From IMG/VR virus record IMGVR_UViG_3300035698_032497: a stretch of DNA of 64,000 bases; one strand, written 5' to 3'. The translations under genes were made by a program, and so were the position numbers. Shown here piece by piece: positions 8,977 through 36,462 of this stretch (its first letter is position 1; each line of letters opens with the position of its first letter). The notes beneath the pieces were generated by a model. That model saw only the letters and a list, made by a program, of their open reading frames with translations, made no database searches and was not told the DNA's origin. The DNA is from a virus (Duplodnaviria > Heunggongvirae > Uroviricota > Caudoviricetes).

Positions 8977-9005
8977 TTGCCACTGTCAGTAGAGAGAGTT
9001 ACTCT
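8977..9005 (+). promoter_or_regulatory. class-A phage promoter: TTGCCA-17-TACTCT with embedded palindrome
   Basis: TTGCCACTGTCAGTAGAGAGAGTTACTCT, 20 nt upstream of the methyltransferase RBS; near-identical to the copies at 21654 and 35086. Confidence 0.6.
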
Positions 9006-9024
9006 TGAGACAGGAGAATCGCCC

Positions 9025-10566
9025 ATGTCAGATCCGTACACTCCTCGTGACTCCCAGGCCGGCCGCAAGACCGGAAAGGACAAGGCTCGTGGCTATGTTC
9101 CGACACCCATGAGTGTGGCCGTGGACATGGTCAGGAAGCTCGAGGGGTGGCCGGCGAAGCCTGGGCTGCTGCTCGATCCGGGCTGCGGTGACGGCGTGTT
9201 CGTCGAGGCCGCTATCCGTGTAGCTGTGGAGCGGGGCCACTGTCCGGTGGAGGTGTCTCGTCGGATCTTTGCTGTCGATATTGTGAGCCCCTTCAGTGCC
9301 ATCAGCGCGAGGATGCGAAGGCTCGAGCGGGAACTGGAGACCGAGTACGAGCTCGGCGTCATCTGCTTCGGTGCGGACATCCTGGACTGGGACATCCCCG
9401 CTGACATCGGCTTCGTAGCCGGAAACCCGCCCTACCTCGAGGCCAAGCGCATGTCCGACACGCTGAAGGCCAAGGTGAAGGCGCGCTGCCCCATTGCCGC
9501 TGTCGGCGCGTTCGACCTGTACGGGGCCTTCGTGGAGCTGGTGTCGAGCATCGTGGTGTCTGGAGCGGAGGCGGTCCTCATCGTTCCAAACAGAATCCTC
9601 TCGGCGAAGTGGGCCAAGGGGTTGCGGGAGTCGATCCTCGAAGAGTGCGTGGTCGACCTGTATGACCTGTCAGCGGACAAGGTGTTTCCGTCGACCTCGG
9701 TCTACCCTGTGGTTGTTCGGCTACAGCGGGCTGTGGACGGTGACGCTCTGTCGGTTCCTGGAGTGAGGGACCGCGGTGAGGTCTTGCTGCCTCCGTCTCT
9801 GCTCGATCGTGTTCCGAACTCGGCGTGGCCCGTGCTCCCGGCGACTCCCGGATTGCAGGACTGTGTCATCAGGGCCCTGTCGAGCTCGACGACGGTCAGC
9901 CTCGATCATGCGGTCGATGCCCGGTGGTGCGTGAGCTTCCATCGTGCCGGCCTCAGGGACTCCTACGTGTCCTCGGAGAAGCCGGACAGTGAACATGCGA
10001 ACAGGTTCATCGGAGGGGTTCCGTACTCTGGAAACCGAGAGGTGGGGTGGCTGAAGATCGACTGGGCAGGGACGTGGATCGACTACGACGAGGAGCGCGC
10101 CAGGGCTGACAAAAACCAGCTTCCTCCGTTGTCGATCTTCGCCGCTCCCAAGCTGGTGGTCTGCCAGAACGCCAGGCGTTGCAGGTGCGCGGTCGACGTG
10201 GTCGGGCACGTGCTGAAGGACACCTTCATCACCATGACCCTGCGCCCGGGCGTCCCACGGTGGTGGTTGTACTGGACGGCGCTGGTGCTATCGTCGAACA
10301 TCTTCCACCTGGTCTACGAGTCGTTGAACGCCGGAAGCAGGAAAGGTGGTGGGTTCCTGTCGTTCCTTCCGTCTACGCTGGGCCGTGTTCCGGTCCCGCG
10401 TCTCGAGGGGCTCTCTCCGTCTGCCATCGCCAAGCTGTACAATGACTGTTCCACGGGTGACGACCATGCGTGGGCCAGGCTGGACGCCATCGTAGCGACG
10501 CTGTACGGCCTCGACGCCAAGATGCTCGATTCACTGTCTTCTGCGGATGTTCCACCGAGAGATTGA
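9025..10566 (+). CDS. N6-adenine DNA methyltransferase (gamma-class, NPPY)
   Basis: LLDPGCGDGVF (FxGxG, SAM-binding) followed by VAGNPPYLE; start moved to the ATG with a GGAGAA RBS. Confidence 0.75.
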   Translation: MSDPYTPRDSQAGRKTGKDKARGYVPTPMSVAVDMVRKLEGWPAKPGLLLDPGCGDGVFVEAAIRVAVERGHCPVEVSRRIFAVDIVSPFSAISARMRRLERELETEYELGVICFGADILDWDIPADIGFVAGNPPYLEAKRMSDTLKAKVKARCPIAAVGAFDLYGAFVELVSSIVVSGAEAVLIVPNRILSAKWAKGLRESILEECVVDLYDLSADKVFPSTSVYPVVVRLQRAVDGDALSVPGVRDRGEVLLPPSLLDRVPNSAWPVLPATPGLQDCVIRALSSSTTVSLDHAVDARWCVSFHRAGLRDSYVSSEKPDSEHANRFIGGVPYSGNREVGWLKIDWAGTWIDYDEERARADKNQLPPLSIFAAPKLVVCQNARRCRCAVDVVGHVLKDTFITMTLRPGVPRWWLYWTALVLSSNIFHLVYESLNAGSRKGGGFLSFLPSTLGRVPVPRLEGLSPSAIAKLYNDCSTGDDHAWARLDAIVATLYGLDAKMLDSLSSADVPPRD

Positions 10567-10620
10567 GTCTGTGCTCCTCCTGGGCTATCCTCCAGGCAGC
10601 CACCTACGCTGGAGCGAGCC

Positions 10621-12117
10621 ATGAGCGGAATCGAATGGGACATCTTCGGTGCCGATGACGAAGCACGGGACGAGGAACGGGACGAGGAGCTGGATGAGAT
10701 CATCGAACAGCTCGAAGAGGGGCCACCATGGGAAGATGTCGTCGGCGACGTGGCGTTGGACTGTATCATGGCAGCGTCGGACACTCTGACGGGTGACATC
10801 TCTGGATACGTGATCGTCGTTCCGGTCATCGTGACGAACATGGTCCAGCTGTACAGGGAGATCGGCCGTGGCCAGAAGCTCTTGTCGTGGGCAGAAGACA
10901 AGGGCATGAACGACAAAATGGCCTTGGAGATGAAGGCCACTGCCGACGACATCAGGAGAGATCTCGTCGACATGATTCAGGGGCTCGTCACGGCGATTCC
11001 GTCTGCCGGTGAAGAGGTCGTGTCTTTGGTTGGCGGGATCGGGATCACCTACTTCGCCAAAGGCACCGTTGAAGACATCTCCACTCTCTACAACGCCATC
11101 CTGGAAGCGTCTCCCGACTTCGTCAGGAACGTGCTCGAGTGGGACGATGAGGAAGCGAGCATCACGCCCCATGGGCTGTTCCTCGATGGCCTGTCCACTC
11201 TCGGGTCGCTGGTCGTCGCCATCGACAGGCACAAGGAAGGCCTCGAGTTCGTTCGGATATACGACCGGCTTCTTCCGGACGACGAGCCGGACGACGAGCC
11301 GGACGACGAGCCGGACGATGAGTCGGAGTTCGAGATGACCAACGGGGACAGAGATCAGCGCAAACTAGACGATGTCTCTGCGCTCGATCTTCGCGCTGAG
11401 GGCTACTCCCTGATGCTCGCGGCTCGCTGCGCTGTGCTGAACGGTGGTGACGTCCCAGAGCAGCTGCGGAACCAGCTGGTCTTCGTCGAGCAGCTCGTCA
11501 GCGAGCTATCGCTGCACGCCGCGTCTCCGCCTGAAGACGATGAGGGCGACGGGGACGACCTCTCGGAGCTGATGGGCGAGTACTCGAGCCACATCTCGGA
11601 CACCTTCGACAGCTCGAGGGGTATCGAGGAGGACGCGCACGGAGTGAAGGGGGCGCTGTGGAGCGTGCTGGAGATCCTCTCGGGAGTGGTCTCGAACATC
11701 GAACGTGACGGAGCAGAGAGCGAGGATCTCGACCCGGACGTGTTCGTCGAACTGCGCATTGATCTGGAGAACACGATCGGGCTGCTCGATGGCGGGATCG
11801 AGCCGGACGATCAAGATCTCGATCTGGATGAGCAGGACGTGAAGCCAGGTAGCTGTGGTGAGCCTGCGACGTCACCAGCACCGGAGACACCAAGGTTCGT
11901 CGCTCCAACCACGGTCCATCCGCCGGTCGAGCAGGAGCCTTCCAGTGTGCTGCCCCCTGGCTTCCGTGAGCCCGCACCCGTGCTGACCCCCGTGGCGCCC
12001 GAGCAGAGCTCAGGCGGCGGCGGAGGGGCCATGGCCGCGCTCCTGTTGGGCGGCGTGGCGGTCGTTGGTGGGGCTGTGCTGTACAAGGCCCGTGGAAGGA
12101 AAGGTGGCAAGAAGTAG
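10621..12117 (+). CDS. acidic protein with C-terminal TM anchor and (PDDE)4 repeat
   Basis: 498 aa, D/E-rich, C-terminal GGGGAMAALLLGGVAVVGG; PDDE repeat at 11275..11322. Confidence 0.6.
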   Translation: MSGIEWDIFGADDEARDEERDEELDEIIEQLEEGPPWEDVVGDVALDCIMAASDTLTGDISGYVIVVPVIVTNMVQLYREIGRGQKLLSWAEDKGMNDKMALEMKATADDIRRDLVDMIQGLVTAIPSAGEEVVSLVGGIGITYFAKGTVEDISTLYNAILEASPDFVRNVLEWDDEEASITPHGLFLDGLSTLGSLVVAIDRHKEGLEFVRIYDRLLPDDEPDDEPDDEPDDESEFEMTNGDRDQRKLDDVSALDLRAEGYSLMLAARCAVLNGGDVPEQLRNQLVFVEQLVSELSLHAASPPEDDEGDGDDLSELMGEYSSHISDTFDSSRGIEEDAHGVKGALWSVLEILSGVVSNIERDGAESEDLDPDVFVELRIDLENTIGLLDGGIEPDDQDLDLDEQDVKPGSCGEPATSPAPETPRFVAPTTVHPPVEQEPSSVLPPGFREPAPVLTPVAPEQSSGGGGGAMAALLLGGVAVVGGAVLYKARGRKGGKK

Positions 12118-12166
12118 CGCTGACGATCTCGACGATCGGTACCGCTAAAAAAAATACTGATGGGCA

Positions 12167-12224: not shown

Positions 12225-12488
12225 ATGACCGAGCGCATCAGGATGGAAGTCGAAGTCGTTGCAGAGCGCGGTGGCAACACCTGGGACCATACCGGCACTC
12301 GCCAGAGCGGACTGTTCCTGCTGCGGGACACCGCCACGGGCAAGGAGTACACCTTCGACAGCTTCGCCAGGTGGAACGTCGGCGAGATCCGGAAGATCTC
12401 CGCGGTCGTGGACGAGCGTGGGAGCCACTTCTTCGGCGGAAAGTACATCCAGTGCATCGAGTGGCCCCGTCCGGTGAAAAAGATCTGA
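12225..12488 (+). CDS. hypothetical protein
   Basis: 88 aa, GGAG RBS; flanked by two promoter copies. Confidence 0.5.
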   Translation: MTERIRMEVEVVAERGGNTWDHTGTRQSGLFLLRDTATGKEYTFDSFARWNVGEIRKISAVVDERGSHFFGGKYIQCIEWPRPVKKI

Positions 12489-12496
12489 ACCATCAC

Positions 12497-12525
12497 TTGC
12501 TACTGACAGTGGCAGGTGATAGGTT
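12497..12525 (+). promoter_or_regulatory. class-A promoter TTGCTA-17-(TG)ATAGGTT
   Basis: TTGCTACTGACAGTGGCAGGTGATAGGTT, 31 nt before the ArdC-like ATG. Confidence 0.6.
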
Positions 12526-13902: not shown

Positions 13903-14721
13903 ATGGTTCTTCTCGCCATCGCGGCCGGCTCCCTTGGAGCCGCGGGCTTCATCCAGGCCGTCTCGGAGTCGAAGCGTCGAGATCCGGACAACGAGCGCTT
14001 CGGAGGGTTCTCGGAGGCGCTGTCGCAGCTGGGACCGATGAAGGACGGTGAGAGTTACCTCCGTCGTGCGCTCGACGTGATGCGCAAGGCCATCGGTCAC
14101 AGCTTGGAGCCGATGGCGCTGGTGCAGGCGTCGACTCCGTCTCCGGACGATGCCTTTGTGCGAGCTGGTGTGGAGAAGATCCTGGAGATGGTCATCGAAA
14201 TCCAGCAGGCTTATCCGCAGGCTGAACCGATGCTGGCGCTGTCTATCGTCGAGGTGGCGCTGTTGCTCGAGACTCATCCGTATTGGCTCGCCAACCTGAT
14301 CAACTTCGAGTCGAACAAGAGCTTTTCGTCCAGCGTGAAGAACCCGCACACCAACGCTGTCGGTCTGATTCAGTTCCTCCCGTCGACCGCGGCGGGGCTT
14401 CTGGGGATGACGCCAGGGAGGTCCCGGGGGCGGTACACGAGCGCCCAGCGCGAAGAGGCGGTGTCCATCTTCGAGTCCATGCCGGAGGTGGAACAGATGA
14501 GCTTCGTATTCGACTACCTGGGTCAGTTCGGGAAGCTGAACACTCAGCAGCGGCTGTATATGTCCGTGTTCTACCCCGTGGCCATGCGCTGGCCGAAGGA
14601 CAAGCTGTTCCCCGAGGACGTCCGTGCTGTGAACCAGGCGGAGACCCCGGGACAGTACATCGCGTACGCCGACAGGAACGCCAGGATTCGGAACCCGAGA
14701 GAGAACATCGCTGTCGCTTGA
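13903..14721 (+). CDS. lytic transglycosylase (SLT-domain)-like, membrane-anchored
   Basis: ESNKSFSS…AVGLIQF resembles the SLT catalytic ES…GLMQ block; N-terminal TM; GGAGGG RBS. Confidence 0.55.
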   Translation: MVLLAIAAGSLGAAGFIQAVSESKRRDPDNERFGGFSEALSQLGPMKDGESYLRRALDVMRKAIGHSLEPMALVQASTPSPDDAFVRAGVEKILEMVIEIQQAYPQAEPMLALSIVEVALLLETHPYWLANLINFESNKSFSSSVKNPHTNAVGLIQFLPSTAAGLLGMTPGRSRGRYTSAQREEAVSIFESMPEVEQMSFVFDYLGQFGKLNTQQRLYMSVFYPVAMRWPKDKLFPEDVRAVNQAETPGQYIAYADRNARIRNPRENIAVA

Positions 14722-14768
14722 CAGTTTCTTGACAAAACGTAACGACACTTATGGGCGGATGTCGTTAC
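14718..14768 (+). promoter_or_regulatory. tandem TTGACA boxes plus 9-bp perfect inverted repeat GTAACGACA-N12-TGTCGTTAC (putative operator)
   Basis: TTGACAgtttcTTGACA at 14718-14734; the IR at 14739..14768 overlaps the start region of the RHH-like gene. Confidence 0.5.
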
Positions 14769-14777
14769 ACTGGCGAC

Positions 14778-15029
14778 ATGGCAAAGAAGACACCGTTCAA
14801 CATGCGCATGGACCCCGAGCTGAAGGGCTGGCTCGACGAGCACTGCGCACGTCACGACAAGCATGTCTCCAAGGTGGTCCACGGACTGCTCGAGGCTCTG
14901 CGTGAAGATCGCATCATGGTCTTCCCGCGGCACGTCCCTGGTGTCTTCCAGGCCTTTCCGGACAGCTGTCCCGCACTGGGTAGTAGTCCGGACAACCCAG
15001 CCCTCATCGCCTGGTGCGAGCAGGAGTGA
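14778..15029 (+). CDS. ribbon-helix-helix (Arc/CopG-like) DNA-binding protein
   Basis: MAKKTPFNMRMDPELKGWLDEHCARHDKHVSKVVHGLLEALRE has a beta-strand then two helices, typical of RHH. Confidence 0.45.
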   Translation: MAKKTPFNMRMDPELKGWLDEHCARHDKHVSKVVHGLLEALREDRIMVFPRHVPGVFQAFPDSCPALGSSPDNPALIAWCEQE

Positions 15030-16041: not shown

Positions 16042-16544
16042 TGGATCCGCGCTTCGAGCTCGTGCTGTCCTTCTCCATCCCCGGCCAGCCTCACGGTAAG
16101 CAGTCCGTGCGGGTGGCCGGTGGTCGAGGCCGCAAGGCCAAGAAGAGCAAGCTCTACGAGGAGCAGATCGCGAGGATCACCGGGGCCGCGGCGAGGAAGG
16201 CCGGACTGGTCGTTCCGCTGCGTCGAATGGTGATGCTGGACATCACCGCGGTGCTGGCCAGGCCCAAGAACATCCCTGTGGCCCTGCGTGTCCCTGTGCA
16301 GCCTGGTGGTGACCTATCGGGCAGGCTGTTCGCGCCGGTCAAGGCGGACTGGGACAACATCGCCAAGAGCATCGGTGATGGTCTGCAGCAGCGCAGCGAG
16401 ATCTCTGCGCCCGTGCTGAAGGACGATGGCCTGGTCGTGCGCGGGAGGGTCGATACGGTCAGGGCTGCGGTTGGTGAGAGCCCAAAAGTGGAGGTATGGC
16501 TGTGGATCCTGGCGGACCCGAAGGCGTGGCCTGGGCAGCCATGA
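16041..16544 (+). CDS. rusA: RusA-family Holliday junction resolvase
   Basis: KADWDNIAKSIGD (DxDNxxK) and LKDDGLVV motifs; start overlaps the upstream stop. Confidence 0.7.
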   Translation: MDPRFELVLSFSIPGQPHGKQSVRVAGGRGRKAKKSKLYEEQIARITGAAARKAGLVVPLRRMVMLDITAVLARPKNIPVALRVPVQPGGDLSGRLFAPVKADWDNIAKSIGDGLQQRSEISAPVLKDDGLVVRGRVDTVRAAVGESPKVEVWLWILADPKAWPGQP

Positions 16545-18507
16545 TGCCGGCCTCGATGGCCCGGTAGATGCGCTCGGCCAGTTTTGGGTACTCACAGGCA
16601 TCCGAAGACTCGAGCCCCTCGATGAACACGGTGCGGGTCTGCTGGTTTTCGTGCCTATCGTCGATGGTCAGCTCGTTTCTGGCGATCTGTTGCGCTTGGG
16701 CCATGGATTTTCGGATGGCGTCTCCGTTCCATTCGAACCATCCGGTTCTTGCTCCGTGGTCGTTGATGGATGCCCTCTTCCGATACTCGCTGACGTTGAC
16801 CGTGAGGAGCCTGGTTCCTCTGACGCTCTCGTGTCCGCTGCTGGTCGTCACGGTGGCGCTTCCACCCATCTTGAGCGGCTTCTCCGACGTGACCCCGAGG
16901 TGCTTTTCGATCTCTCTAACGACGGTGTTCCAGTCTTCTCCTGGGCGTGTCTCGACGGTGGCACGGTAGATGAACCGTGGTCCCCAGCTGGCTCTCAGCT
17001 TGACGATGAACCCTTCGTCATTCCAGGACAGCTCGTAGTCGAAGGTCACCACCCACTCGAAACGATCGTCGTGGATCTCGATGATGTCGGTCAGCTCGTC
17101 GAGCTTCGCCTCGATCTCGTTGAGCTCGTGCGGTCTGCACTCCAGCGGGATGGAGCCGCTCCCAGAGTGGGTGATGGGGCCTATTCGTAGGCCTATCTTG
17201 TCGATGGTGTTGTTCTGCATCCTGAACTCTGCCCATGGTTCCGACAGCTGCAGGTAGTGGTATATCTGGAGCTCCATCAGGTAGTTTGCGGAGACCGGGA
17301 AGCGGGTTTTCGGTGGGTGGACCAAGATGTCGTGCAGAGTCTCGGGAGGTAGCAGGACGAGCCCGTCCTCACCCATCGTCGAGTACGGACGTGGTCTGTC
17401 CTGGTCGAGCGCACTGTCCGGTCGTGGGTCGAGCAGCATGCGAAGGGCCTTGTCCTGGTACTTTCCGAGCAGGCGCATGTTGCGCTTGCCTCTGGCTTGC
17501 GTGTCGGTCCATAGCATCGCCTGCCAGTGCCCATTTGGGCTGGTTGGGGACCTGCGCTGGTCTGGAGTGATGAACGCTGGTTCCCCAGAGGTGCGTACCA
17601 GTTCGACCCCCGGTAGGAAGACGAAGCTGTCCAGCCGCTGCTCGACCGTCATCACCGGCGTCCTGTCCGGTTTGCGCAGGCTCAGGTAGCGTTTTCTCGG
17701 GTTGTTCAGTTCGTGCTCGTAGGTCTCGATGCAGTGACCCAGCCAGCTCGCCTCTGCGTTGAGGTGCTCGGGAGTTGTCAGCTGGACCACGTGCCAGCCG
17801 TCGTCCCACTCGAGGAGCCTGTCCGGGTAGGCCTCTCCAGTCAGGCTGACAGGGCTCTCCATCCGGGAAGCGATGGCGATGTTCTCGTGCCAGTCTGCCG
17901 CCTGCTCTTCGGCGTATTCGAGGCTCCATCCGTCTTGGAACAGGCTCATGGGATCGGTGCCGGTCCCTCGGAGCCAGTCTCGGATAGCGAAGAAGCCGTT
18001 CCACCCCATGGGGGTATCGATGAGCACCATCCCCCACCCGTGGTAGAGGTTGGTCTCAGCGCCCGTGGCGGTGTGGTCATCGTCTACGTAGAACTTGTGT
18101 GAGCATCCTCCGATCGCTGATCTTCTGGCGGCTGGTCGATATTCTTTCGCCCACTTGACGATGTCGGCCACCATCCATGGAATCAACGACTCGAGGCCTG
18201 TCTCCCATCTTGTTGGGACCTCTCCGTCGAAGCAGCCAGAGCTGACCTCGCAGATCTCGCCATTCACGTATGCCATCATGCAGCGATCGTAGGATCCTTC
18301 GGAGGCTTCCGCCCTGTGAAGCATGGCCTGCACCAAGCAGCTGATCTCCCGCTCGTAGCCCTGGTTTTGCGCCATGGCACGCTCGATGAGCTCGACAGAA
18401 TCGGGCTCGCGCCTCTCGTGCAGTCCGAGCCTGGCCTTGAGCTGGTTCAGGACGGCTTTCCTGGACCTGGCGTCAGGGCTGGTGGCGATGATGGCGGCGA
18501 GGCTCAT
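16459..18507 (-). CDS. large hypothetical protein, member of the GHC-motif paralog family
   Basis: 682 aa; …DDGWHVVQL…ASWLGHCIETYEH…YLSLRKPD… is shared with three other large ORFs in the window. Confidence 0.65.
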   Translation of the reverse strand: MSLAAIIATSPDARSRKAVLNQLKARLGLHERREPDSVELIERAMAQNQGYEREISCLVQAMLHRAEASEGSYDRCMMAYVNGEICEVSSGCFDGEVPTRWETGLESLIPWMVADIVKWAKEYRPAARRSAIGGCSHKFYVDDDHTATGAETNLYHGWGMVLIDTPMGWNGFFAIRDWLRGTGTDPMSLFQDGWSLEYAEEQAADWHENIAIASRMESPVSLTGEAYPDRLLEWDDGWHVVQLTTPEHLNAEASWLGHCIETYEHELNNPRKRYLSLRKPDRTPVMTVEQRLDSFVFLPGVELVRTSGEPAFITPDQRRSPTSPNGHWQAMLWTDTQARGKRNMRLLGKYQDKALRMLLDPRPDSALDQDRPRPYSTMGEDGLVLLPPETLHDILVHPPKTRFPVSANYLMELQIYHYLQLSEPWAEFRMQNNTIDKIGLRIGPITHSGSGSIPLECRPHELNEIEAKLDELTDIIEIHDDRFEWVVTFDYELSWNDEGFIVKLRASWGPRFIYRATVETRPGEDWNTVVREIEKHLGVTSEKPLKMGGSATVTTSSGHESVRGTRLLTVNVSEYRKRASINDHGARTGWFEWNGDAIRKSMAQAQQIARNELTIDDRHENQQTRTVFIEGLESSDACEYPKLAERIYRAIEAGIMAAQATPSGPPGSTAIPPLLGSHQPQP

Positions 18508-18556: not shown

Positions 18557-18585
18557 TTGCCACGGACAGTAGAGTATGCTACCTG
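18557..18585 (+). promoter_or_regulatory. promoter TTGCCA-17-TACCTG
   Basis: TTGCCACGGACAGTAGAGTATGCTACCTG; only 7 nt before ATG 18593, so near-leaderless. Confidence 0.45.
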
Positions 18586-19699: not shown

Positions 19700-19728
19700 T
19701 TGCTACCGCCAGTGGAGCATGATAAGTG
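19700..19728 (+). promoter_or_regulatory. class-A promoter TTGCTA-17-(TG)ATAAGTG
   Basis: TTGCTACCGCCAGTGGAGCATGATAAGTG. Confidence 0.55.
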
Positions 19729-20404: not shown

Positions 20405-20433
20405 TTGCTACGTCCAGTAGCAGGTGATATGCT
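20405..20433 (+). promoter_or_regulatory. class-A promoter TTGCTA-17-(TG)ATATGCT
   Basis: TTGCTACGTCCAGTAGCAGGTGATATGCT. Confidence 0.6.
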
Positions 20434-24390: not shown

Positions 24391-24415
24391 CGTGCCACTG
24401 GTGGTGGCATACAGT
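24387..24415 (+). promoter_or_regulatory. promoter TTGACG-17-TACAGT with spacer palindrome GCCAC-TGGTG-GTGGC
   Basis: TTGACGTGCCACTGGTGGTGGCATACAGT. Confidence 0.5.
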
Positions 24416-24535
24416 TCATGCACGAGGCGGCCAGAGGGCTCTGTGGCTCTCACCTTCTGCGGAGGCGTAGAAGGTCCCTCCTGTCCCGAGTAGAACAGTA
24501 CTTTCCGGCCCCTCGCCTTTTCATCCGGAGAACCC

Positions 24536-25015
24536 ATGATCGATCGAGCATCCAGCACCTTCAATCAGCAACGTGAGCTCGTGCTCACGCTCGCCATCGA
24601 CATGGCGATGTGCGCTGGGAGGAAGTGTGAGCTCAGCTCTCGCCCATGGAAGGATCCGGAACACACCGAAGCCCGGGCCAGGCTCGGGTCCGCCAGGTCA
24701 GCGCTGGTACGGGCAGCCAAGAAGCTGGACAACATGCAGCGGGGTATCGACAAGAGAGCCCTGAAGAACGGCGTGACCAAGCCTGGCGTGTGGCTGCTTC
24801 CGATGCCGCCTGGCGAGGCACGAAAGATTCCCGCCATCAAGCTGCTGCGCCACCTGACCGGCATGTTCCTCAAGGAGGCCAAGCTGGCGGTGGAGAGTAG
24901 GTCCCCGATCATGCTGTCCGCCGATCCAGACAGGATGGCCCACTTCGTGTTGTCTCTGTCCGTTTTGCAGCTGGACGGCAAGGAAGAGATCATGCCGATG
25001 GTCGTTGTCCGTTGA
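24536..25015 (+). CDS. hypothetical protein
   Basis: GGAG RBS. Confidence 0.5.
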   Translation: MIDRASSTFNQQRELVLTLAIDMAMCAGRKCELSSRPWKDPEHTEARARLGSARSALVRAAKKLDNMQRGIDKRALKNGVTKPGVWLLPMPPGEARKIPAIKLLRHLTGMFLKEAKLAVESRSPIMLSADPDRMAHFVLSLSVLQLDGKEEIMPMVVVR

Positions 25016-26298: not shown

Positions 26299-26345
26299 CG
26301 TCGTAGGTGTTGTTCCACCCCTGGTAGAAAAAAACCACCATTTCC

Positions 26346-26372
26346 TTGACGCCACATGGGGCTCCAGATAGT
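26346..26372 (+). promoter_or_regulatory. promoter TTGACG-(15-17)-TAGTCT, candidate for tRNA array 1
   Basis: Family-like -35/-10 about 290 nt upstream of the first tRNA; coordinates ±2. Confidence 0.35.
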
Positions 26373-26537
26373 CTTGTCACGTGAGCCCGACGTTTCAGCG
26401 GGCAGAGAGACTCATGAACCCTGTCATCGCCACCACCTGTTCATCGTTTAGCAGCTTGCTCTCCAGCAGCTGGCTGCTCTACGTGCAGTCGGAGGTGGCT
26501 TCGTAGGTTCGGACTCAATCCCGCCCAGACGAATGTT

Positions 26538-26662: not shown

Positions 26663-26750
26663 GTGCCTGGGTGTCGGAGCTGGTATACGAGCTGGCGTCA
26701 AATCCCAGTGACCGCAAGGTCGTGGGGGTTCGAGTCCCCCCTCAGGCACC
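26663..26750 (+). tRNA. atypical type-II tRNA, probably tRNA-Leu(CAA)
   Basis: 7-bp acceptor GTGCCTG/CAGGCAC, T-loop GGTTCGAGTCC, long variable hairpin. The anticodon region GCGTCAAATCCC has a mismatch next to the loop and resembles the tRNA-Sec UCAAAUCC arm. Confidence 0.5.
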
Positions 26751-26756
26751 ATCCGT

Positions 26757-26848
26757 GGGTAAGTGGCATCTGCTGGTATAGGGTGCGTCGGGCTGTAAAC
26801 CCGGAGCCAATGTGGCCGTCGGGGGTTCGATTCCCTCCTTACCCACCA
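26757..26848 (+). tRNA. tRNA-Tyr(GTA), type II
   Basis: Acceptor GGGTAAG/CTTACCC, anticodon loop CTGTAAA, long variable arm, CCA encoded. Confidence 0.8.
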
Positions 26849-26918
26849 TTTTTTCGTTGATCGTACAGCGTAGCGCTCCGAGCTCTGGCTCGTTGAGCGA
26901 CGTTGTGCGTACACATCA

Positions 26919-27006
26919 GGAGACGTGGTCGAGCGGCCGAAGGCACCCGCTTGGAAAGCGGGTAGGGCAACCACCCTCGCGAGTTCGAATCTCGCCGTCT
27001 CCGCCA
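26919..27006 (+). tRNA. tRNA-Ser(GGA)
   Basis: GGAGACG…CGTCTCC-G-CCA; anticodon loop TTGGAAA; long variable arm. Confidence 0.85.
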
Positions 27007-27100
27007 TTTCATGCGGACCGGGCCCGCAGCCAACAGCCAACAGCCAACAGCCAACAGCTGCTCGCTGCGCTCGCTGGCCATAGACACTGTTCGTTTTTCT
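27007..27100 (+). repeat. spacer repeat A containing (CAACAGC)x4 heptad tandem repeat (27031..27058)
   Basis: Re-used with divergence at 27544..27646 between the second Ser-tRNA pair. Confidence 0.7.
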
Positions 27101-27188
27101 GGAGGCGTGGCCGAGCGGCTGAAGGCACTCGCCTGCTAAGCGAGTACGGTTCACACCGTCGAGGGTTCGAATCCCTCCGCCTCTTCCA
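27101..27188 (+). tRNA. tRNA-Ser(GCT)
   Basis: Anticodon loop CTGCTAA; acceptor GGAGGCG/CGCCTCT; CCA encoded. Confidence 0.85.
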
Positions 27189-27202
27189 TTTTCGAGTTTA
27201 GC

Positions 27203-27280
27203 GGGACTGTAGCTCAGACGGTAGTAGCACCGGACTGAAAATCCGGCATGACGGCGGTTCGATTCCGCCCGGTCCCACCA
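27203..27280 (+). tRNA. tRNA-Phe(GAA)
   Basis: Anticodon loop CTGAAAA; T-loop GGTTCGATTCC. Confidence 0.8.
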
Positions 27281-27284
27281 CCTT

Positions 27285-27442
27285 CGCGGACGAGAGAGAC
27301 TTCGTGTGAGTTCAGAATACTGTAGGTTCGAGTCCTACTTCCCCCACCACCATGGGGGAATGGCGGAATGGCAGACGCAACCGACTTGAAATCGGTCTCA
27401 TTCGAGACGACTCTATTACACTCCCTCACTCTCTTGTTCGCG
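27285..27442 (+). ncRNA. circularly permuted tRNA-Ser(UGA)-like element closed by a 14-bp terminal helix (Y-RNA-like)
   Basis: Order is T-arm GTAGG-TTCGAGT-CCTAC, acceptor 3' TTCCCCC, loop ACCACCAT, acceptor 5' GGGGGAA, D-arm GCG…CGC, anticodon arm ACCGA-CTTGAAA-TCGGT. Flanks CGCGGACGAGAGAG and CTCTCTTGTTCGCG pair over 14 bp with 2 G-U. Confidence 0.45.
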
Positions 27443-27455
27443 ACACCTTTCCTAC

Positions 27456-27543
27456 GGAGACGTGGTCGAGCGGCCCAAGGCACTCGCTTCGAAAGCGAGA
27501 GGGGCAACCACCCCCGAGGGTTCGAATCCCTCCGTCTCCGCCA
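27456..27543 (+). tRNA. tRNA-Ser(CGA)
   Basis: Anticodon loop TTCGAAA. Confidence 0.85.
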
Positions 27544-27646
27544 TCTCATGCGGACCTTTGGTCGGCAGCCAACAGCCGACAGCCTACAACCAACAGCCGA
27601 CAGCTGCTCGCTGCGCTCGCTGGTCATGGACATTGTTCGTTTTTCT
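27544..27646 (+). repeat. spacer repeat A' with degenerate CAACAGC/CGACAGC heptads
   Basis: About 85% identical to 27007..27100. Confidence 0.7.
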
Positions 27647-27734
27647 GGAGGCGTGGCCGAGCGGTCGAAGGCGATCGCCTTGAAAGCGGTAGAGGCTCAC
27701 CCCTCCGAGGGTTCGAATCCCTCCGCCTCCTCCA
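27647..27734 (+). tRNA. tRNA-Ser(TGA)
   Basis: Anticodon loop CTTGAAA. Confidence 0.85.
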
Positions 27735-27738
27735 TTTC

Positions 27739-27815
27739 GTCGACGTACCCAAGTGGCTCAAGGGCTCCGGTTGCAAACCGGGTGTTCGTCGGTTCGAATC
27801 CGGCCGTCGACTCCA
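27739..27815 (+). tRNA. tRNA-Cys(GCA)
   Basis: Anticodon loop TTGCAAA; acceptor GTCGACG/CGTCGAC. Confidence 0.85.
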
Positions 27816-27829
27816 TCTCGTTTTTTTGT

Positions 27830-27915
27830 GGGCCTGTGGTGAAATGGCAGACACGCGGGGTTTAGGACCCCGTCTCCTCTCGGAGGTGAGGGTTCGAATC
27901 CCTCCGGGCCCACCA
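27830..27915 (+). tRNA. tRNA-Leu(TAG)
   Basis: Anticodon loop TTTAGGA; long variable arm. Confidence 0.85.
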
Positions 27916-28072
27916 TCGCTCCAAGGAGCGTACGCAAGTCAGGCGATGTAGGAACACTGGTTCAGGGAAGTCTGGACCAGGGCTGGCTCCCTGGGAGTCC
28001 CGGGGAAACGGGCTGCTGGCGTCCGAGGTTCTATCGGCGAGGCCCGCGTCGGCCTGGACGGCGCACTCTTTC

Positions 28073-28160
28073 GGCCCCGTGGTGAAGCTGGCAGACACGC
28101 TGCGTTCAGGGCGCAGTTCCCCTTGTGGGAGGCCCGGTTCGAATCCGGGCGGGGCCACCA
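28073..28160 (+). tRNA. tRNA-Leu(CAG)
   Basis: Anticodon loop TTCAGGG; long variable arm. Confidence 0.85.
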
Positions 28161-28173
28161 TTTTCTTGTTTTT

Positions 28174-28262
28174 GCGCCCGTGGTGAAGCTTGGCAGACAC
28201 GCGAGGTCGAGGGCCTCGTTCCCTTTACGGGAGGGCCGGTTCGAATCCGGCCGGGCGCACCA
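28174..28262 (+). tRNA. tRNA-Leu(GAG)
   Basis: Anticodon loop TCGAGGG; long variable arm. Confidence 0.85.
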
Positions 28263-28276
28263 TTTTCAACCTTCAT

Positions 28277-28346
28277 ATCGGCCGTCCAGGGGCACTGCAG
28301 GTCTCCAAAACCCGCGGGCAAAGTTCGATTCTTTGGGCCGGTGCCA
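28277..28346 (+). pseudogene. degenerate tRNA-like element (pseudo-tRNA)
   Basis: Acceptor ATCGGCC/GGCCGGT-G-CCA and T-arm CAAAG-TTCGATT-CTTTG are present, but there is no canonical D/anticodon arm. Confidence 0.3.
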
Positions 28347-28875: not shown

Positions 28876-29304
28876 CTATGCTGGGTTCGGTGGGCGCCAG
28901 CCCAGGGCTTTGCGCATCAGCTTGCCTATGCGTACGGCTCGTGGGACGTTGGACAGCTTCATCTTGCCAGCCACATACAGCCTGACGGCGTCTACTGTCC
29001 CGGGGTGGTCACGCATCCACAGCAGGCTCTCCGCGGCCATGTCGATGACGCACGGCTCGGCGTCCAGACCGTTTTTCTTCTGCCAGTCTTCGACACGTTT
29101 CCAGAAGGTACTCGTGACCTGGTCCTGTTCGCCTTGGACCCTGGTGACCCGCATCTTCTCGCCGGTGCCGTCGATGACGAAGAAGGTCACCGGACCGAGC
29201 TGGATCAGGTAGATCCCGTACGGTTTCTCGTCATGGTGGTGGTGGACGTATCTGTCGAGGTTCTCCACCAGGTCGTGACACTGTCGAAGTGTGGTTGGAT
29301 CCAT
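28876..29304 (-). CDS. hypothetical protein
   Basis: Start trimmed to MDPTTLRQ with a GGAG RBS. Confidence 0.5.
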   Translation of the reverse strand: MDPTTLRQCHDLVENLDRYVHHHHDEKPYGIYLIQLGPVTFFVIDGTGEKMRVTRVQGEQDQVTSTFWKRVEDWQKKNGLDAEPCVIDMAAESLLWMRDHPGTVDAVRLYVAGKMKLSNVPRAVRIGKLMRKALGWRPPNPA

Positions 29305-29356
29305 GGGCAAGCTCCACTGAGCGTGGAGTATATCCCTGATAAGCTCTCCGGTCGAG

Positions 29357-30259: not shown

Positions 30260-30467
30260 GGTGGTTCTCCTGTCCGGATAGGTGTCATCATCCTATATCG
30301 GGTGGTCGTCGAGGTCCACCTTCATCGCGGGTCCGATCCTCTGGATCGCCCACATCATGGCGTGGTTCTGGCTGCAGGGTCTGTTTCTGTCCGCCCACGC
30401 GAACGTACCGAGGAGAACAGTTAGCCACGACCAGTGGAAGGCGCTATACTCGAAAGGTGAGGATGCC

Positions 30468-31334: not shown

Positions 31335-31370
31335 TTGACGGGATATGTTCGACCTGCTACTAACAGTAGC
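31335..31370 (+). promoter_or_regulatory. class-B promoter TTGACG-17-TACTAA with hairpin GCTAC-TAACA-GTAGC at +1
   Basis: TTGACGGGATATGTTCGACCTGCTACTAACAGTAGC. Confidence 0.5.
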
Positions 31371-31393
31371 GAATCAACCATGGAGCGCAAGCC

Positions 31394-32708: not shown

Positions 32709-35048
32709 CTACTCTTCGTCACCGAGCTCGTCGAGCTCACTGAGCTGGTCCTCGATTTCGCGGAGCACGGCTGCTGCGGTCTTGACTTTCGCGATCTTGG
32801 TGGCCGGCGCTCTGCCCTTGGAGACTTTCCGCAGCGTGCGGCGCTGGTCTCGGTCCAGGGTGAGCTCTCCGGTTCGGCTCATGGCGGTCATGGGCACCGT
32901 GATGTCCGGGTGCAGCCAGATGTGCTCTGGAGAGCTGGTGACCTCACCGATGACGTCTTCTTCTTCGACGCGCTCCTCGTCGAGCTTCTTCTTCTGGGTA
33001 ACAGTGACCAGGACCTTGGCCTTCAGCATCGCGTCCAGCGCGCTATGCTTGGAGCTGGCGATGGTGGTGCCGTAGCCTCTATCTTCGTCGGGGGCATGGA
33101 CATCCCATCTCGGGATCTGTATCCAGTCGTGGGATCCGTTGGCCACGATGGTCATGAACGATTCCGAGTACTCGGGATCCTGACTGTCTTCGTACAGCTC
33201 GAGGACCCAGTCGCCGCCATGGCTTTCGAAGTCGTTGTAGCTCACCTTTCCGATGACACCGTCGATGGACTCGGAGAGGAACTCCAGCTCGGCCTTGACG
33301 TTGGCCCAGGTCTCTTGTCCATACACGCTGGCGTCATGCTCGTTGAAGCACTCCAGCATCCACTTTGCGAACCCGAAGACCGTGAGCTCGTCCTTGTCGA
33401 CCTCGGCCATGTACTCGATGAGGTCTTGACCATGGCGGTCGGTGATGTACTTCTCCAAGAAGCTTGCGAGCTTCTTCTCCCTGCGCCCGTGCTCCTCGAA
33501 CTCCTCGTCCCCCCATTCTTCTTCATCGTAGCCATGGTCGCTGTAGAAGCTGCGCAGACCGCAGTCGTTGATGGCGGCTTCGAAGTTGTCGATGTTTTCG
33601 TAGGTCTCCTGGTACCAGGACATATTGCAGTCGAGCTCTTCCTGGATGGATAGGGACTTTTGGTTTTGCTCGAGGGTCCACTTGCTTTTCTCGTCTTCTC
33701 CGTCATCTTCGGGGATTTCGTTCTCACGCTTCATCCACTCGGGGATGGCACCGCCCGGAATGGAGAGTGGAAGCGACGGGCCTCCCAGGGCCCAGACGTG
33801 ATCGTCGAGATCGGTGTCCAGCAGGCTATCCAAGAACCACTTCATGCGCTTCGCGGCGGTCTTGTCCGTGACCTGGTGGTTGTCGTGACCCTTGAGGTCC
33901 ACGACCATGGTCCACTCGCCACGGATCGGGATTTCGCCGTCGTGGATTTTCGAGATCTTCTCTTTCTTCCACCCGTAGGGCGGGTACCAGTTCTCGTCGT
34001 CGTTCTTCTCGGTCAGCATCAGGTCGTCGCCGACATGGTTTTCGTCGATGCTCAGGGCCGCGGTACCCCATGGTTTGCCGCTGTCGTCTCGGATGGAGAA
34101 GATGATCTCGGTCCCCTCCCTGACGTAGCTCCAGTGGCCACCGACGCAGTGGCCCATGCTCTTGCCCTCTTCCTCGCACTCCTTGGCCGTCACCAGCCTG
34201 TCGATGTGCCAGCCATCGGGCCAGGTCACGACGGTGACCCCGGGGGTGACGGGGGACTTGTAGTCGGCTTGACCGATGAACTGCTGGTGCCATTCATGGC
34301 TTCTGCGCTGGACTTCTCCGATGCTCATGCCCATGATGTTCGGCCGCTCTTCCTCGATCCAGTCGATGACGTCGGGCATGCCGCCAGGTCTGTAGCCTTC
34401 CTCTTGCAAGCCGACGCGTTCGTCGAAGCCGATCCAGTCGATGTCGTTGGCGACGGGATAGCCGCGGAAGAACTCGTGGAAGTCGCCGTGACCGCTCAGG
34501 CCGTGGGGAGGAATGTAGCCCTGAGGGGCGTTTTCGTCGTGCCAGCGAACGATCCTGGCGCACTCCGAAGCCAGCCATGGAATCCACGGGTCCCAGCGGG
34601 AGTTGGCACCTGGTTCGGGTATGATGTCGGGGTGAGGCATCCAGTCTACCGGAAGCTTGACCCACGAGTTCCCTCTTCCGTGGCTCGCGTTCCATACGGA
34701 TCTGACCGCGAGTCCGCGGCGTTTGCCTGCGTGCTCGGCCATCTGTGCATGGTAGTGGGTTGGGTTTTGAATCAGGTGGCTGTCGATCTTCCATATCAGT
34801 CGGTTTCGATCTGGGATCGTGAACGCCTGGGCGTCATCCAGCAGCTCCCACAGCAGGTAGCGGGCCCTGGCGTCTTGCAGCTGCGAGAACGCCCACAGCA
34901 GCCTGGTGCGAGTCCCGGAGCGCGCCGTGGGTGCCCCACGCAGGCCGGACAAGTTCACCAGCCGGTGCCAGGAGCCCTTCATGCGTCCCTGGCCGGGAGC
35001 GAGGACGAGGGCGGAGATGATGGAGAGGGCTTGCATCGGGCGTAGCAT
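32709..35048 (-). CDS. large hypothetical protein, GHC-motif paralog family
   Basis: 779 aa; …WPDGWHIDRLV…EEGKSMGHCVGGHW…IFSIRDDSGKPWGTAAL…. Confidence 0.7.
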   Translation of the reverse strand: MLRPMQALSIISALVLAPGQGRMKGSWHRLVNLSGLRGAPTARSGTRTRLLWAFSQLQDARARYLLWELLDDAQAFTIPDRNRLIWKIDSHLIQNPTHYHAQMAEHAGKRRGLAVRSVWNASHGRGNSWVKLPVDWMPHPDIIPEPGANSRWDPWIPWLASECARIVRWHDENAPQGYIPPHGLSGHGDFHEFFRGYPVANDIDWIGFDERVGLQEEGYRPGGMPDVIDWIEEERPNIMGMSIGEVQRRSHEWHQQFIGQADYKSPVTPGVTVVTWPDGWHIDRLVTAKECEEEGKSMGHCVGGHWSYVREGTEIIFSIRDDSGKPWGTAALSIDENHVGDDLMLTEKNDDENWYPPYGWKKEKISKIHDGEIPIRGEWTMVVDLKGHDNHQVTDKTAAKRMKWFLDSLLDTDLDDHVWALGGPSLPLSIPGGAIPEWMKRENEIPEDDGEDEKSKWTLEQNQKSLSIQEELDCNMSWYQETYENIDNFEAAINDCGLRSFYSDHGYDEEEWGDEEFEEHGRREKKLASFLEKYITDRHGQDLIEYMAEVDKDELTVFGFAKWMLECFNEHDASVYGQETWANVKAELEFLSESIDGVIGKVSYNDFESHGGDWVLELYEDSQDPEYSESFMTIVANGSHDWIQIPRWDVHAPDEDRGYGTTIASSKHSALDAMLKAKVLVTVTQKKKLDEERVEEEDVIGEVTSSPEHIWLHPDITVPMTAMSRTGELTLDRDQRRTLRKVSKGRAPATKIAKVKTAAAVLREIEDQLSELDELGDEE

Positions 35049-35085: not shown

Positions 35086-35114
35086 TTGCCACTGACAGTA
35101 GAAAGTGTTAGCTT
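35086..35114 (+). promoter_or_regulatory. class-A promoter TTGCCA-17-(TG)TTAGCTT
   Basis: TTGCCACTGACAGTAGAAAGTGTTAGCTT; divergent from the large minus-strand gene. Confidence 0.6.
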
Positions 35115-35475: not shown

Positions 35476-36006
35476 ATGAATACGATGGAAGAGCACGAAA
35501 TCAGTCACGCCGATCAAGAAGCCGAAGGCAGAGCCGTCGAGGGTGCGGACCGCGTGGACGACCCCGACTTCGACAGGCGGGCGCTCAGGCGGCGGCTCGA
35601 GGCTATCCCCCCGGATCTTCGCGAACAGCTCGCCTCCGAACCCGGTCCCGGCTGGTTGTGGTGGTACGGGTCCAGCAAGAAGCTGCCGACCATGCAGAAG
35701 TGGCACTATGGCGGCCTGCAGAAGAGCGCCCTGACCGCCAAGCCGCTCACTCCTCACCCGGACGTTCCGGTGGTCCTGCGTGGCAACTCCGAGCTGTCCA
35801 TTTGGCTCCCGGCTTCTCCCAGCTCCATCAACAGGGCCACCATCTCTGTGGTCGGATCCAAACGTTTCTGGCGCATGACCATGAACCGTGCGCTGGACCT
35901 GAAGATGTCCCACAGCGAGTACGAGCCGACCATGAACATTGGCGAGGCCCTGCGCATGTTGATGGGGGTGCTGGGTGAGGTCTCCGTGCGAGAGCTGGGT
36001 GATTAG
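35476..36006 (+). CDS. hypothetical protein
   Basis: AGAGAAGG RBS. Confidence 0.5.
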   Translation: MNTMEEHEISHADQEAEGRAVEGADRVDDPDFDRRALRRRLEAIPPDLREQLASEPGPGWLWWYGSSKKLPTMQKWHYGGLQKSALTAKPLTPHPDVPVVLRGNSELSIWLPASPSSINRATISVVGSKRFWRMTMNRALDLKMSHSEYEPTMNIGEALRMLMGVLGEVSVRELGD

Positions 36007-36008
36007 AG

Positions 36009-36428
36009 ATGAAGAAGCGGGTCAGGAACAAGGTACGTAGGCGCGTTGCCGAGGCGGTGTGGGGGAAGTGGAAGGACCGACGCGGCCGCCCCAGCGGACA
36101 CTTCAGGAGCTACGAACGGGGCTGGACCAAGAACCGATGGATCCCTGGATTCTCCATGCCAGGCCACAGCCTCGAGCAGATGAGGAAGGCAGGAGTCGCC
36201 CACCTGGACGGTGACACGCTCATCATCCACAGGGAAGGTAGTGGAAGATGTCCACGTTCGGTGTTTCTGAGTGAGAAGAGCAAGTGGGCCGTCATGTGCG
36301 GCCGGATGATATGCACGAGTCGGGGGCATTTGTTCGTCAACGGGTACGAGGGTGAGTGCCCGTTCGAGGGGGATGTTGTGGGGCACCATCCGCGCTCGAG
36401 GCATCTCGATGGTCACTTCGTGAAGTGA
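36009..36428 (+). CDS. Zn-finger/HNH-like small protein
   Basis: Cys cluster and GHHPRSRHLDGH. Confidence 0.35.
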   Translation: MKKRVRNKVRRRVAEAVWGKWKDRRGRPSGHFRSYERGWTKNRWIPGFSMPGHSLEQMRKAGVAHLDGDTLIIHREGSGRCPRSVFLSEKSKWAVMCGRMICTSRGHLFVNGYEGECPFEGDVVGHHPRSRHLDGHFVK

Positions 36429-36433
36429 CGTGT

Positions 36434-36462
36434 TTGCCACTCCTGGTGGAAGGTGTTATGTT
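36434..36462 (+). promoter_or_regulatory. class-A promoter TTGCCA-17-(TG)TTATGTT
   Basis: TTGCCACTCCTGGTGGAAGGTGTTATGTT. Confidence 0.6.

Follow-up and report, generated by a model that had tools for sequence, protein, structure and literature searches.

On plasmid R388, the regulators ArdK, KorA, and StbA hold strong promoters, PardC among them, under tight repression, and a transcriptional overshoot accompanies entry into a new cell (PMC3937220). Cluster O mycobacteriophages carry more than 30 copies per genome of a 17-bp palindrome, TGTTCGGNNNCCGAACA, mostly between genes and beside SigA-like promoters, the function and binding protein of which are unknown (PMC4351075). In T4-type phages, a repeated early-promoter cassette, the promoter-early stem-loop (PeSL), precedes many small variable genes (PMC4122927). 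Here, we describe a recurrent promoter motif with an embedded palindrome in a stretch of 64,000 nucleotides (hereafter the window) from the IMG/VR virus record IMGVR_UViG_3300035698_032497, assigned to the Caudoviricetes.

The near-identical early promoters of Streptomyces phage phiC31, studied by Smith and co-workers in the 1990s, are said to carry 17-bp conserved inverted repeats (CIR) bound by the c repressor. These promoters are reportedly not sigma-70-like, unlike those of the window, and phiC31 is said to be a 41-kb temperate phage; the sequence of its repeat is unrelated to the present one.

Very little is understood of gene scheduling in uncultivated huge phages or phage-like megaelements. 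We propose that the motif in the window represents promoters for a housekeeping sigma factor (sigma-70/SigA-type) in which a 17-bp operator is embedded, the target of a dimeric repressor that the element itself encodes, a reading that we consider rather probable as a whole. The promoter identity is well supported; that the promoters are active, that the palindrome serves to repress and not to activate, when the genes are expressed ("early or middle" in an earlier note on this DNA), and where the regulator comes from are what we infer. As that note had suggested in speaking of a promoter family under one regulator, the sites, most of them of a principal form called class A, probably make up one regulon.

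Class-A sites in the window

A scan of the window with a position weight matrix (PWM), iterated from the sites listed in the earlier note, gave ten plus-strand sites with the pattern TTGCYAC-N5-GTRG-N6-TG-N-TAnnnT. All face a plus-strand gene, with 7-53 nt between the end of the -10 box and the start codon, and the spacing between the -35 and -10 boxes is exactly 17 nt in every site, as had been noticed before. The sites are the following, where L numbers denote sequences other than the window:

8977-9005, plus strand: class-A site TTGCCACTGTCAGTAGAGAGAGTTACTCT before the Eco57I-like methylase gene (9025), divergent from a minus-strand gene ending at 8903; orthologous site in L162
12167-12195, plus strand: class-A site before an 87-residue gene (12225); A8 tract at about -45
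12497-12525, plus strand: class-A site before the ArdC-like gene (12557)
18557-18585, plus strand: class-A site before the ATG at 18593; orthologous site at L085:6832
19700-19728, plus strand: class-A site before the gene of a 74-residue membrane protein (19754); orthologous site at L085:7972
20405-20433, plus strand: class-A site before gene 20487, its 6-bp arms being perfect (TGCTAC/GTAGCA); the site has orthologues at L085:8715 and in L155
21654-21682, plus strand: class-A site matching the consensus, located in the 3' end of gene 21179-21676, upstream of gene 21709; the site has orthologues at L085:9934 and L089:497
30422-30450, plus strand: class-A site with the -35 box TAGCCA before the gene of a 78-residue membrane protein (30468), absent from the earlier note; orthologous site at L085:16600
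35086-35114, plus strand: class-A site before a small membrane open reading frame (ORF), divergent from the gene of a 779-residue PcfJ-like protein; orthologous site in L154
36434-36462, plus strand: class-A site before gene 36491; identical at 29/29 positions in L154 and at 28/29 in L171
50784-50812, minus strand: variant of class A, TTGACACGCTCCGTAGAGTATTGTAAGTT, with the -35 sequence TTGACAC, upstream of and facing tRNA-Val (50472-50549, minus strand)

All eleven positions given in the earlier note carry the sequences reported there. Nine of its ten copies before plus-strand starts belong to class A, to which 30422 is added, whereas 24387, also counted among the ten, and the similar copy at 52302 have another geometry, described below. 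At 18557, the -10 box ends 7 nt before the ATG (6 nt in L085, 6832-6870), with no Shine-Dalgarno sequence, so the transcript may be leaderless.

The motif is far more frequent than expected by chance. The promoter pattern TTGCYA-N17-TANNNT has six exact matches in the window, all on the plus strand, against 0.06 expected, and the palindrome GCYAC-N5-GTRGC has eight against 0.19 expected. The shorter core CYAC-N5-GTRG occurs in 22 copies compared with 2.7 +/- 1.7 in shuffled sequences, and 19 of the 22 lie inside the non-coding 17% of the window (P = 2e-12), in line with the intergenic enrichment expected in the earlier note.

The geometry of the palindrome differs in part from its first description. 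It had been placed inside the spacer, but its left arm, TTGCYAC, is the -35 hexamer itself, and the dyad spans -32 to -16. The -35 box is TTGCYA (a 5/6 match to the consensus) in 9/10 sites and TAGCCA in the remaining one. Five-base arms (GCCAC or GCTAC) had been reported in every copy; what is invariant in the window is only CYAC/GTRG, the fifth pair (G...C) being present in 4/10 class-A sites, and mixed arms (CCAC...GTAG) are common. In the full 17-bp dyad, TGCYAC-N5-GTRGCA, the arm centers are 11 bp apart, about one helical turn; one sequence with the TGCYAC arms is TTGCTACTGACAGTAGCAA. The last base of the -10 box is T in seven of the ten sites and G in the other three.

Boxes of the form TTGACN occupy the -35 position at 24387, 26346, 52302, 60593, and, on the minus strand, 50784. 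The exact pattern TTGACN-N17-TANNNT has five matches in the window, all intergenic, and none at a spacing of 16 or 18 nt, from which it follows that the element uses such a promoter grammar. A generic terminator scan of the window showed no enrichment by itself, and the sole terminator-like call at any site, at 12492, is the promoter's own dyad. Several promoters of this 62% GC genome have A5-A8 tracts around -45 to -55 (12140-12166, 12470-12480, and 52280-52290), and many sites of the clade show runs of A or T in the same position; they could be UP elements.

Several other known types of site were compared with the motif and dropped. An operator within the spacer of the MerR type needs a spacer of 19-20 bp, compared with 17 bp in every site here. 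A middle promoter with a T4 MotA box does not fit a dyad that retains a -35-like TTG, and no MotA or AsiA match was found in the window. Sigma-54 promoters have the consensus TGGCAC-N5-TTGC, with the GG at -24 before the GC at -12; the order found here, TTGC...N5...TGGCA, is the reverse and is accompanied by a TAnnnT box. A restriction site was rejected on geometry, the sites being tied to promoters, and a transcribed RNA hairpin was rejected since the class-A dyad lies upstream of +1.

Conservation of the motif in relatives

Two loci, L085 (Tara Oceans, 29.7 kb) and L089, are syntenic with the window between 14.7 and 35 kb and carry the motif at orthologous intergenic positions. For 14 orthologous pairs, the 29-mer is 80% identical, compared with 39% for the 40 nt upstream and 42% for the 20 nt downstream, while the proteins are 42-70% identical. 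The 322-residue protein encoded behind site 21654 has only three relatives among 5.8 billion proteins, and it is their contigs that are represented by L085 and L089.

A strict pattern scan of Joint Genome Institute (JGI) metagenomes returned 53 loci, many of them from large contigs with 62-65% GC and several matches each. The motif-rich contigs, of 161.5, 141.7, 80, 70.7, 57.6, and 45 kb, come from several samples, and one of them is syntenic with the window at 66-70% nucleotide identity. Ga0307928_10000002 and Ga0257125_1000079 are the relatives of about 160 and 140 kb. With contigs of 45-160 kb recovered from several samples by one pattern scan, the motif provides a portable metagenome probe for members of the clade.

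From the clade, 77 non-redundant sites scored above 20 bits, and the 64 of them with at least 24 bits were used for counts. Their consensus is TTGCcACtg.c.GT.GcagGTG.TAt.tt. The right arm reads GTRGCA in 39 sites, the final T of the -10 box is kept in 49, and the TG at -15/-14 is present in 53, in agreement with the extended TG of the earlier description; the three window sites ending in G depart from its TAnnnT. A Shine-Dalgarno sequence and a start codon follow within 70 nt in 53/64 sites, compared with 9/64 in a control of opposite orientation. In relatives, three stand-alone tRNA genes (tRNA-Met twice and tRNA-Glu once) have the motif 10-11 nt before the mature 5' end, which argues for a signal of transcription and against one of translation.

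In a control of 1.24 Mb of unrelated viral loci, no PWM hit exceeded 14.5 bits. The strict 26-mer is absent from IMG/VR, where a looser pattern gave single matches only, of at most 26 bits and mostly on low-GC contigs, which look like chance. The strict pattern gave seven single hits in 185,579 GTDB species genomes (596 Gb), with no host regulon visible, and the two clearest PWM hits among the seven show no homology to clade proteins. The contig L206 of a Chloroflexi metagenome-assembled genome, from this GTDB scan, was rejected because it shows no homology to clade proteins.

The promoters had been called actinobacterial. TTGACA and TGnTAnnnT are generic for bacterial housekeeping sigma factors, so this attribution is unsupported; relatives of the element were found only in Tara Oceans and other metagenomes and in none of the GTDB species genomes, and there is no close actinophage match. 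Taken together, the position and orientation of the sites, the exact 17-nt spacing, the extended TG, the conservation in distant relatives, and the placement before tRNA genes argue for sigma-70-type promoters with an occluding dyad.

The conserved unit can extend beyond the promoter. The window segment 12496-12572 shares promoter and 5' leader (67-78 nt, 80-87% identical) with L183, L170, and L199, where the genes behind it are non-homologous. Given the PeSL precedent (PMC4122927), such a cassette could owe its maintenance chiefly to homologous recombination, for which it would be a substrate in the shuffling of early genes, with regulation being secondary. This would leave the dyad symmetry and the other registers of the palindrome (see below) unexplained, and it is compatible with an operator rather than an alternative to one; as the principal explanation we regard it as highly improbable, although the cassette may in addition, as a side effect, help to shuffle genes in the manner of PeSL.

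Three further observations concern these sequences. Motif-bearing relatives contain a three-gene cas cluster (L183:4230-10068, minus strand; L203:561-6510, plus strand) with Cas_GSU0053, Cas_GSU0054, and a Cas3-like protein with an HD domain, similar to type I-G/I-U; a TTGACA box and the palindrome lie upstream of it in both L183 and L203. In L179 (at about 2290-2400; minus-strand site 9896), from Ga0307928_10000002, a run of tandem repeats of 7-8 nt (CGCCCTA/CGCCTTA) follows directly downstream of a motif copy. Finally, L148 (IMGVR_UViG_3300037070_010373), a phage contig with 63% GC, was rejected as a relative and is an analogue only, as it shares no proteins with the window. Its segment 3900-4830 contains two divergent TTGACA-TGCTAC-N5-GTAGCA-TA promoters and two half-matching dyads, flanked by Cro-like and XRE-like helix-turn-helix (HTH) genes, and looks like an immunity switch on the same operator sequence.

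The same palindrome at other promoter registers

The palindrome is also found beside promoter boxes of the canonical type. Relative to these boxes, the dyad center takes five registers, at about -26, -21, -16, -8, and +1, each of which overlaps the core promoter or the RNA polymerase footprint and is conserved in relatives or recurs at several sites:

Class-A sites, as listed above: register about -26; the left arm is the -35 hexamer
24387-24415, plus strand: register about -21; TTGACG-17-TACAGT with TGCCAC-N5-GTGGCA filling the spacer, the palindrome lying 5 bp further downstream than in class A
52302-52330, plus strand: register about -16; TTGACC-17-TAGAGT with GCCAC-N5-GTAGA over the -10 box, the palindrome being shifted 10 bp downstream; A8 tract upstream
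31335-31371, plus strand (palindrome 31357): register about -8; TTGACG-17-TACTAA, its -10 box formed by the left arm GCTAC, before an SPFH/Band7 gene; orthologous site at L085:17507
38197-38233, plus strand (palindrome 38219): register about -8; TTGACC-17-TACTCA with perfect 7-bp arms GTGCTAC/GTAGCAC, before gene 38252
50150-50186, minus strand (palindrome 50152): register about -8; TTGACG-17-TACCAG before a minus-strand gene starting at about 49951-50167
29312-29355, minus strand (palindrome 29314): register about +1; TCGACC-17-TATACT followed directly by CCAC-N5-GTGG, before the gene of a 142-residue protein (28876-29304, minus strand)
60593-60639, plus strand (palindrome 60624): register about +1; TTGACG-17-TAGCAT, then a perfect TTGCTAC-N5-GTAGCAA over +1, before gene 60649
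26315-26374, plus strand: palindrome 26315-26327, followed about 30 bp downstream by the promoter TTGACG-17-TAGTCT (26346-26374), which itself lacks a palindrome and precedes the first tRNA array; conserved in L085
41663-41675, plus strand: palindrome core CTAC-N5-GTGG, with gene 41708 following after 33 nt; neither a clear -35 nor a clear -10 box found

The palindromes at 26315, 29314 (minus strand), 31357, 38219, 41663, 50152 (minus strand), and 60624 had been missed in the earlier list of sites. The view that the dyad is placed so as to occlude RNA polymerase, also expressed there, agrees with all of the registers.

The 24387 promoter heads the operon of a 159-residue gene and a RecD-like helicase, via a conserved 120-nt leader, and its architecture is also present in L085 and L089 (three genomes), with a different N5 and different Y/R positions. 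Downstream of the 52302 site are an unannotated stretch and the second tRNA array; the geometry of this site recurs at L203:561, before the cas operon. In the -8 register, with five members (31357, 38219, 50152 on the minus strand, L092:12692, and L085:17507), TTGACN lies exactly 22 nt before CTAC in 5/5, and this CTAC supplies the TA of the -10 box, again in 5/5. At 29314 (minus strand), TCGACC, TATACT, and the palindrome are kept in four genomes, with a completely different 17-nt spacer. Between orthologues in general, the N5 center and the Y/R positions differ and the arms are kept. From its sequence behavior, the palindrome is a unit separable from the rest of the promoter.

This separability bears on an account in which the element encodes a sigma factor or RNA polymerase of its own that recognizes the 29-mer as a whole, the dyad being incidental and no separate regulator existing. 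The long continuous block of the clade consensus is what phage-specific promoters look like, and huge phages, some reported with AsiA-like and sigma-like proteins, can carry their own sigma-70 (PMC7162821). However, the palindrome without the rest of the 29-mer stands beside canonical TTGACN/TAnnnT boxes at the other registers, conserved in two to four genomes, the spacing and boxes are textbook sigma-70, and the window showed no gene for an RNA polymerase or a sigma factor. We therefore regard a dedicated sigma factor or polymerase as very unlikely.

The registers also bear on the direction of control. All lie inside the RNA polymerase footprint, which fits a repressor, and an activator of fixed geometry could not use them. 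It could nevertheless be that a switch protein on the palindrome activates class A (in a class-II-like manner or by sigma appropriation, as T4 MotA/AsiA do) and represses the canonical TTGACN promoters, giving an early-to-middle switch like that of phi29 p4. The class-A -35 box always departs from TTGACA at position 4 (TTGCYA), and the canonical TTGACN promoters hold the palindrome at other, occluding registers, so that the two architectures could respond oppositely to one protein; the AsiA-like and sigma-like proteins of huge phages would be a precedent (PMC7162821). Against this, with a 5/6 match in TTGCYA and an extended -10 box an activator should be unnecessary, and the dyad at -32 to -16 lies on the face occupied by RNA polymerase. 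MotA boxes are moreover asymmetric and replace the -35 element, and the window yielded no homologue of AsiA, MotA, or a sigma factor. Such a switch seems unlikely, and we continue with repression through an embedded operator.

The leader behind the 24387 promoter (24416-24535; orthologues L085:12645-12770 and L089:3390-3510) is a conserved segment of about 120 nt between the promoter and gene 24536. It contains a conserved hairpin, GAGGGCTC/GCTCTC, a second hairpin, and then the invariant CCTCCTGTCCCGAG. The second hairpin is formed by three different sequences that all pair, with compensatory changes in six pairs. The leader has no Rfam match and is apparently structured.

The proposed regulation and the search for a regulator

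The proposed mechanism is as follows. Without the regulator, class-A promoters would be strong and recognized by host RNA polymerase. Entry into a cell would then produce a burst of establishment and anti-defense genes (ArdC-like and methylase), small membrane proteins, replication and repair genes, and tRNAs. Subsequently, a protein that binds DNA as a dimer, most likely encoded by the element and with half-sites about one helical turn apart, would occupy the palindrome, and the bound dimer would compete with sigma region 4 and RNA polymerase, shutting off the whole gene set together.

Several results weigh against a repressor of this kind acting at sigma-70 promoters. No HTH or winged HTH family was found by Pfam among the approximately 75 window proteins, nor any convincing DNA-binding regulator, and 149 small proteins of relatives yielded a single XRE-type HTH, which is not conserved. 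The search covered about 84 kb of the 385-kb genome (about 22%), the portion that was read. In the sites themselves, class-A right arms are often degenerate in the window (GTRGAG/AA), and the -8 register has poor -10 boxes (TACNNN, the final T being present in 1/5). Lastly, a generic sigma-70 scan of the window gave no overall enrichment, with 8 found compared with about 9 expected. Given the share of the genome that was read, the regulator may lie elsewhere, have an unrecognized fold, or be encoded by the host.

The last of these options would mean that a host transcription factor reads the operator and ties the establishment genes of the element to a host signal. It would explain why no regulator gene was found in the 64 kb and its flanks or in relatives, and the occurrence of the same TTGACA-TGCTAC-N5-GTAGCA-TA on the unrelated phage contig L148 implies that the site is not unique to the clade. 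However, the L148 sites adjoin that phage's own Cro/XRE genes, the seven single strict-pattern hits in 596 Gb of GTDB reveal no host regulon, and only about a fifth of the genome was searched for a regulator. We judge a host factor to be distinctly unlikely and retain an element-encoded repressor.

The ribbon-helix-helix (RHH) protein proposed as the regulator in the earlier note did not prove convincing:

14778-15029, plus strand: RHH-like gene, candidate regulator of the earlier note, only weakly RHH-like

Its match to Pfam RHH_9 has E = 0.11 and that to SvtR in the PDB E = 1.5, the single-sequence AlphaFold2 model is unusable, with a predicted local distance difference test (pLDDT) value of 50, and nothing ties the protein to the palindrome. 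The gene is preceded by a different promoter of its own, a tandem TTGACA-N5-TTGACA (14715-14790) conserved in L085:3120-3175, and its start is probably the ATG at 14778, not 14751. Near the gene lies a separate inverted repeat, GTAACGACA-N13-TGTCGTTAC, in place of which L085 has a GTACAC direct repeat; this repeat may be a second, independent regulatory site.

Two other candidates were considered. The XRE-type HTH protein (L195:915-1175) was dropped as a clade-wide regulator, since it has no homologue in the window or elsewhere in 5.8 billion proteins. The best candidate for autoregulation, the 142-residue protein encoded at 28876-29304 (minus strand) behind a palindrome of the +1 register, has a sterol-carrier-protein-2-like (SCP2-like) fold. 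No other small protein of the region is as conserved, although a search of 5.8 billion proteins gave it only four homologues. At its widest, the proposal would be that one regulator lacking a recognizable DNA-binding domain controls more than 60 promoters, including those of anti-restriction, tRNA, and CRISPR-Cas operons, by way of a site with one half serving also as the -35 hexamer, across an undescribed clade of giant marine extrachromosomal elements, with the promoter-leader cassette doubling as a recombination module for the movement of early genes among their genomes. No regulator for such a system was detected in 84 kb of the source genome or in the approximately 420 kb of high-GC metagenome loci examined, and we give this wide version little credence. 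The defined 17-bp dyad offers a bait for finding the regulator, through DNA affinity or cell-free assays.

The element and its genes

An exact protein match places the 64-kb window within a metagenome contig of 385,225 bp (ENA ERZ27316532 k141_1542414), where it occupies roughly 284.5-348.5 kb in reversed orientation; copies are present in one JGI and two Logan assemblies. The window has 60-66% GC and about 75 genes, the majority of their proteins without a Pfam family. Those that can be recognized include DnaE, a protein with a tail-lysozyme domain, the Eco57I-like methylase, the ArdC-like protein, RusA, uracil-DNA glycosylase (UDG), the RecD-like helicase, a C5 methylase, and several PcfJ-like proteins. 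The 30 tRNA genes form three arrays (26665-28346, 52789-53440, and 62642-63979) and a lone tRNA-Val (50472-50549, minus strand), with a weak tRNA-like Rfam match at 50011-50080 (minus strand). Outside the window, the flanks encode nicotinamide adenine dinucleotide (NAD) salvage proteins, DnaJ, and two proteins that exceed 1,000 residues and have no annotation. In such a gene set, the 29-bp motif marks the starts of transcription units that probably belong to one establishment regulon, and so allows operons to be annotated where most proteins have no family.

Published huge phages have many tRNAs, L7/L12, and CRISPR-Cas (PMC7162821). The size of 385 kb, the 30 tRNAs, DnaE, RusA, the tail-lysozyme domain, L7/L12-like domains, and NAD salvage are comparable traits here, and CRISPR-Cas is found in relatives, which makes the element a probable huge phage. 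It can be called a phage, as in the earlier note, only with this degree of probability, because neither the window nor 84 large proteins of relatives revealed a capsid, terminase, or portal gene; ten proteins (nine larger unannotated ones and the RHH candidate) gave zero PHROG matches. No conjugation genes were seen, megablast of the window found no nucleotide match to sequenced phages or plasmids, and relatives of its DnaE in IMG/VR are at most 41% identical and come without the motif.

Some of the genes are of separate interest. A segment resembling the L7/L12 C-terminal domain is present in two window proteins, 24536-25015 (E = 2e-5) and 37309-37722 (E = 2e-3). Large PcfJ-like or related paralogues with no assigned function are encoded at 16459-18507 (minus strand), 32709-35048 (minus strand), 50855-52198, and 57856-60396, with four more in relatives. 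An HNH endonuclease gene (57183-57674) is shared by the window and the Logan SRR8526178 contig; the otherwise identical 385-kb contig in the European Nucleotide Archive (ENA) has a different ORF there, as if a homing endonuclease gene had been inserted or lost.

Comparison with known systems

The arrangement proposed here is closest to that of R388 (ArdK/KorA/StbA) and the IncP plasmids (KorA/KorB), in which many sigma-70 promoters of one mobile element share a short operator, targets are of the ardC type, and a burst is followed by shut-off, as we propose for this element. The likeness extends to the genes behind the motif in the window, which include ArdC-like, methylase, and PcfJ-like genes. 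The element differs from R388 and IncP in its operator sequence, in its length of 385 kb with tRNA arrays, and in having the -35 hexamer as the left operator arm; homologues of ArdK or KorA were not found.

Among phages, phiC31 offers a similar picture, a 17-bp inverted repeat recurring at many loci together with a conserved early-promoter family, with one repressor in control of the lytic genes; no homologue of the c repressor was found here, no search aimed at it having been made. The Cluster O repeat differs from the present motif in sequence and in the layout of arms and spacer, so the motif is not a copy of TGTTCGGNNNCCGAACA. That repeat has invariant 7-bp arms and an N3 center, is not fused to the -35 and -10 boxes, and follows no orientation rule, whereas the dyad here lies within the promoter at a fixed register. 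As with PeSL, the same cassette precedes unrelated genes; however, the stem-loop of PeSL, which precedes the promoter, acts as a terminator and is not considered an operator, whereas the inverted repeat of the window lies inside the promoter, with no T-run after it.

The operators of lambdoid phages, P22, and 434, bound by HTH dimers, are dyads of 14-18 bp over the -35 and -10 boxes, and here likewise 6-bp arms about one helical turn apart lie over the core promoter. Unlike in the lambdoid switch, the sites are single and dispersed over at least 75 kb rather than tripartite, and no CI/Cro-type gene was found in the window. The design is thus a familiar one, a strong promoter with an overlapping operator being textbook, and this element is a new example of it.

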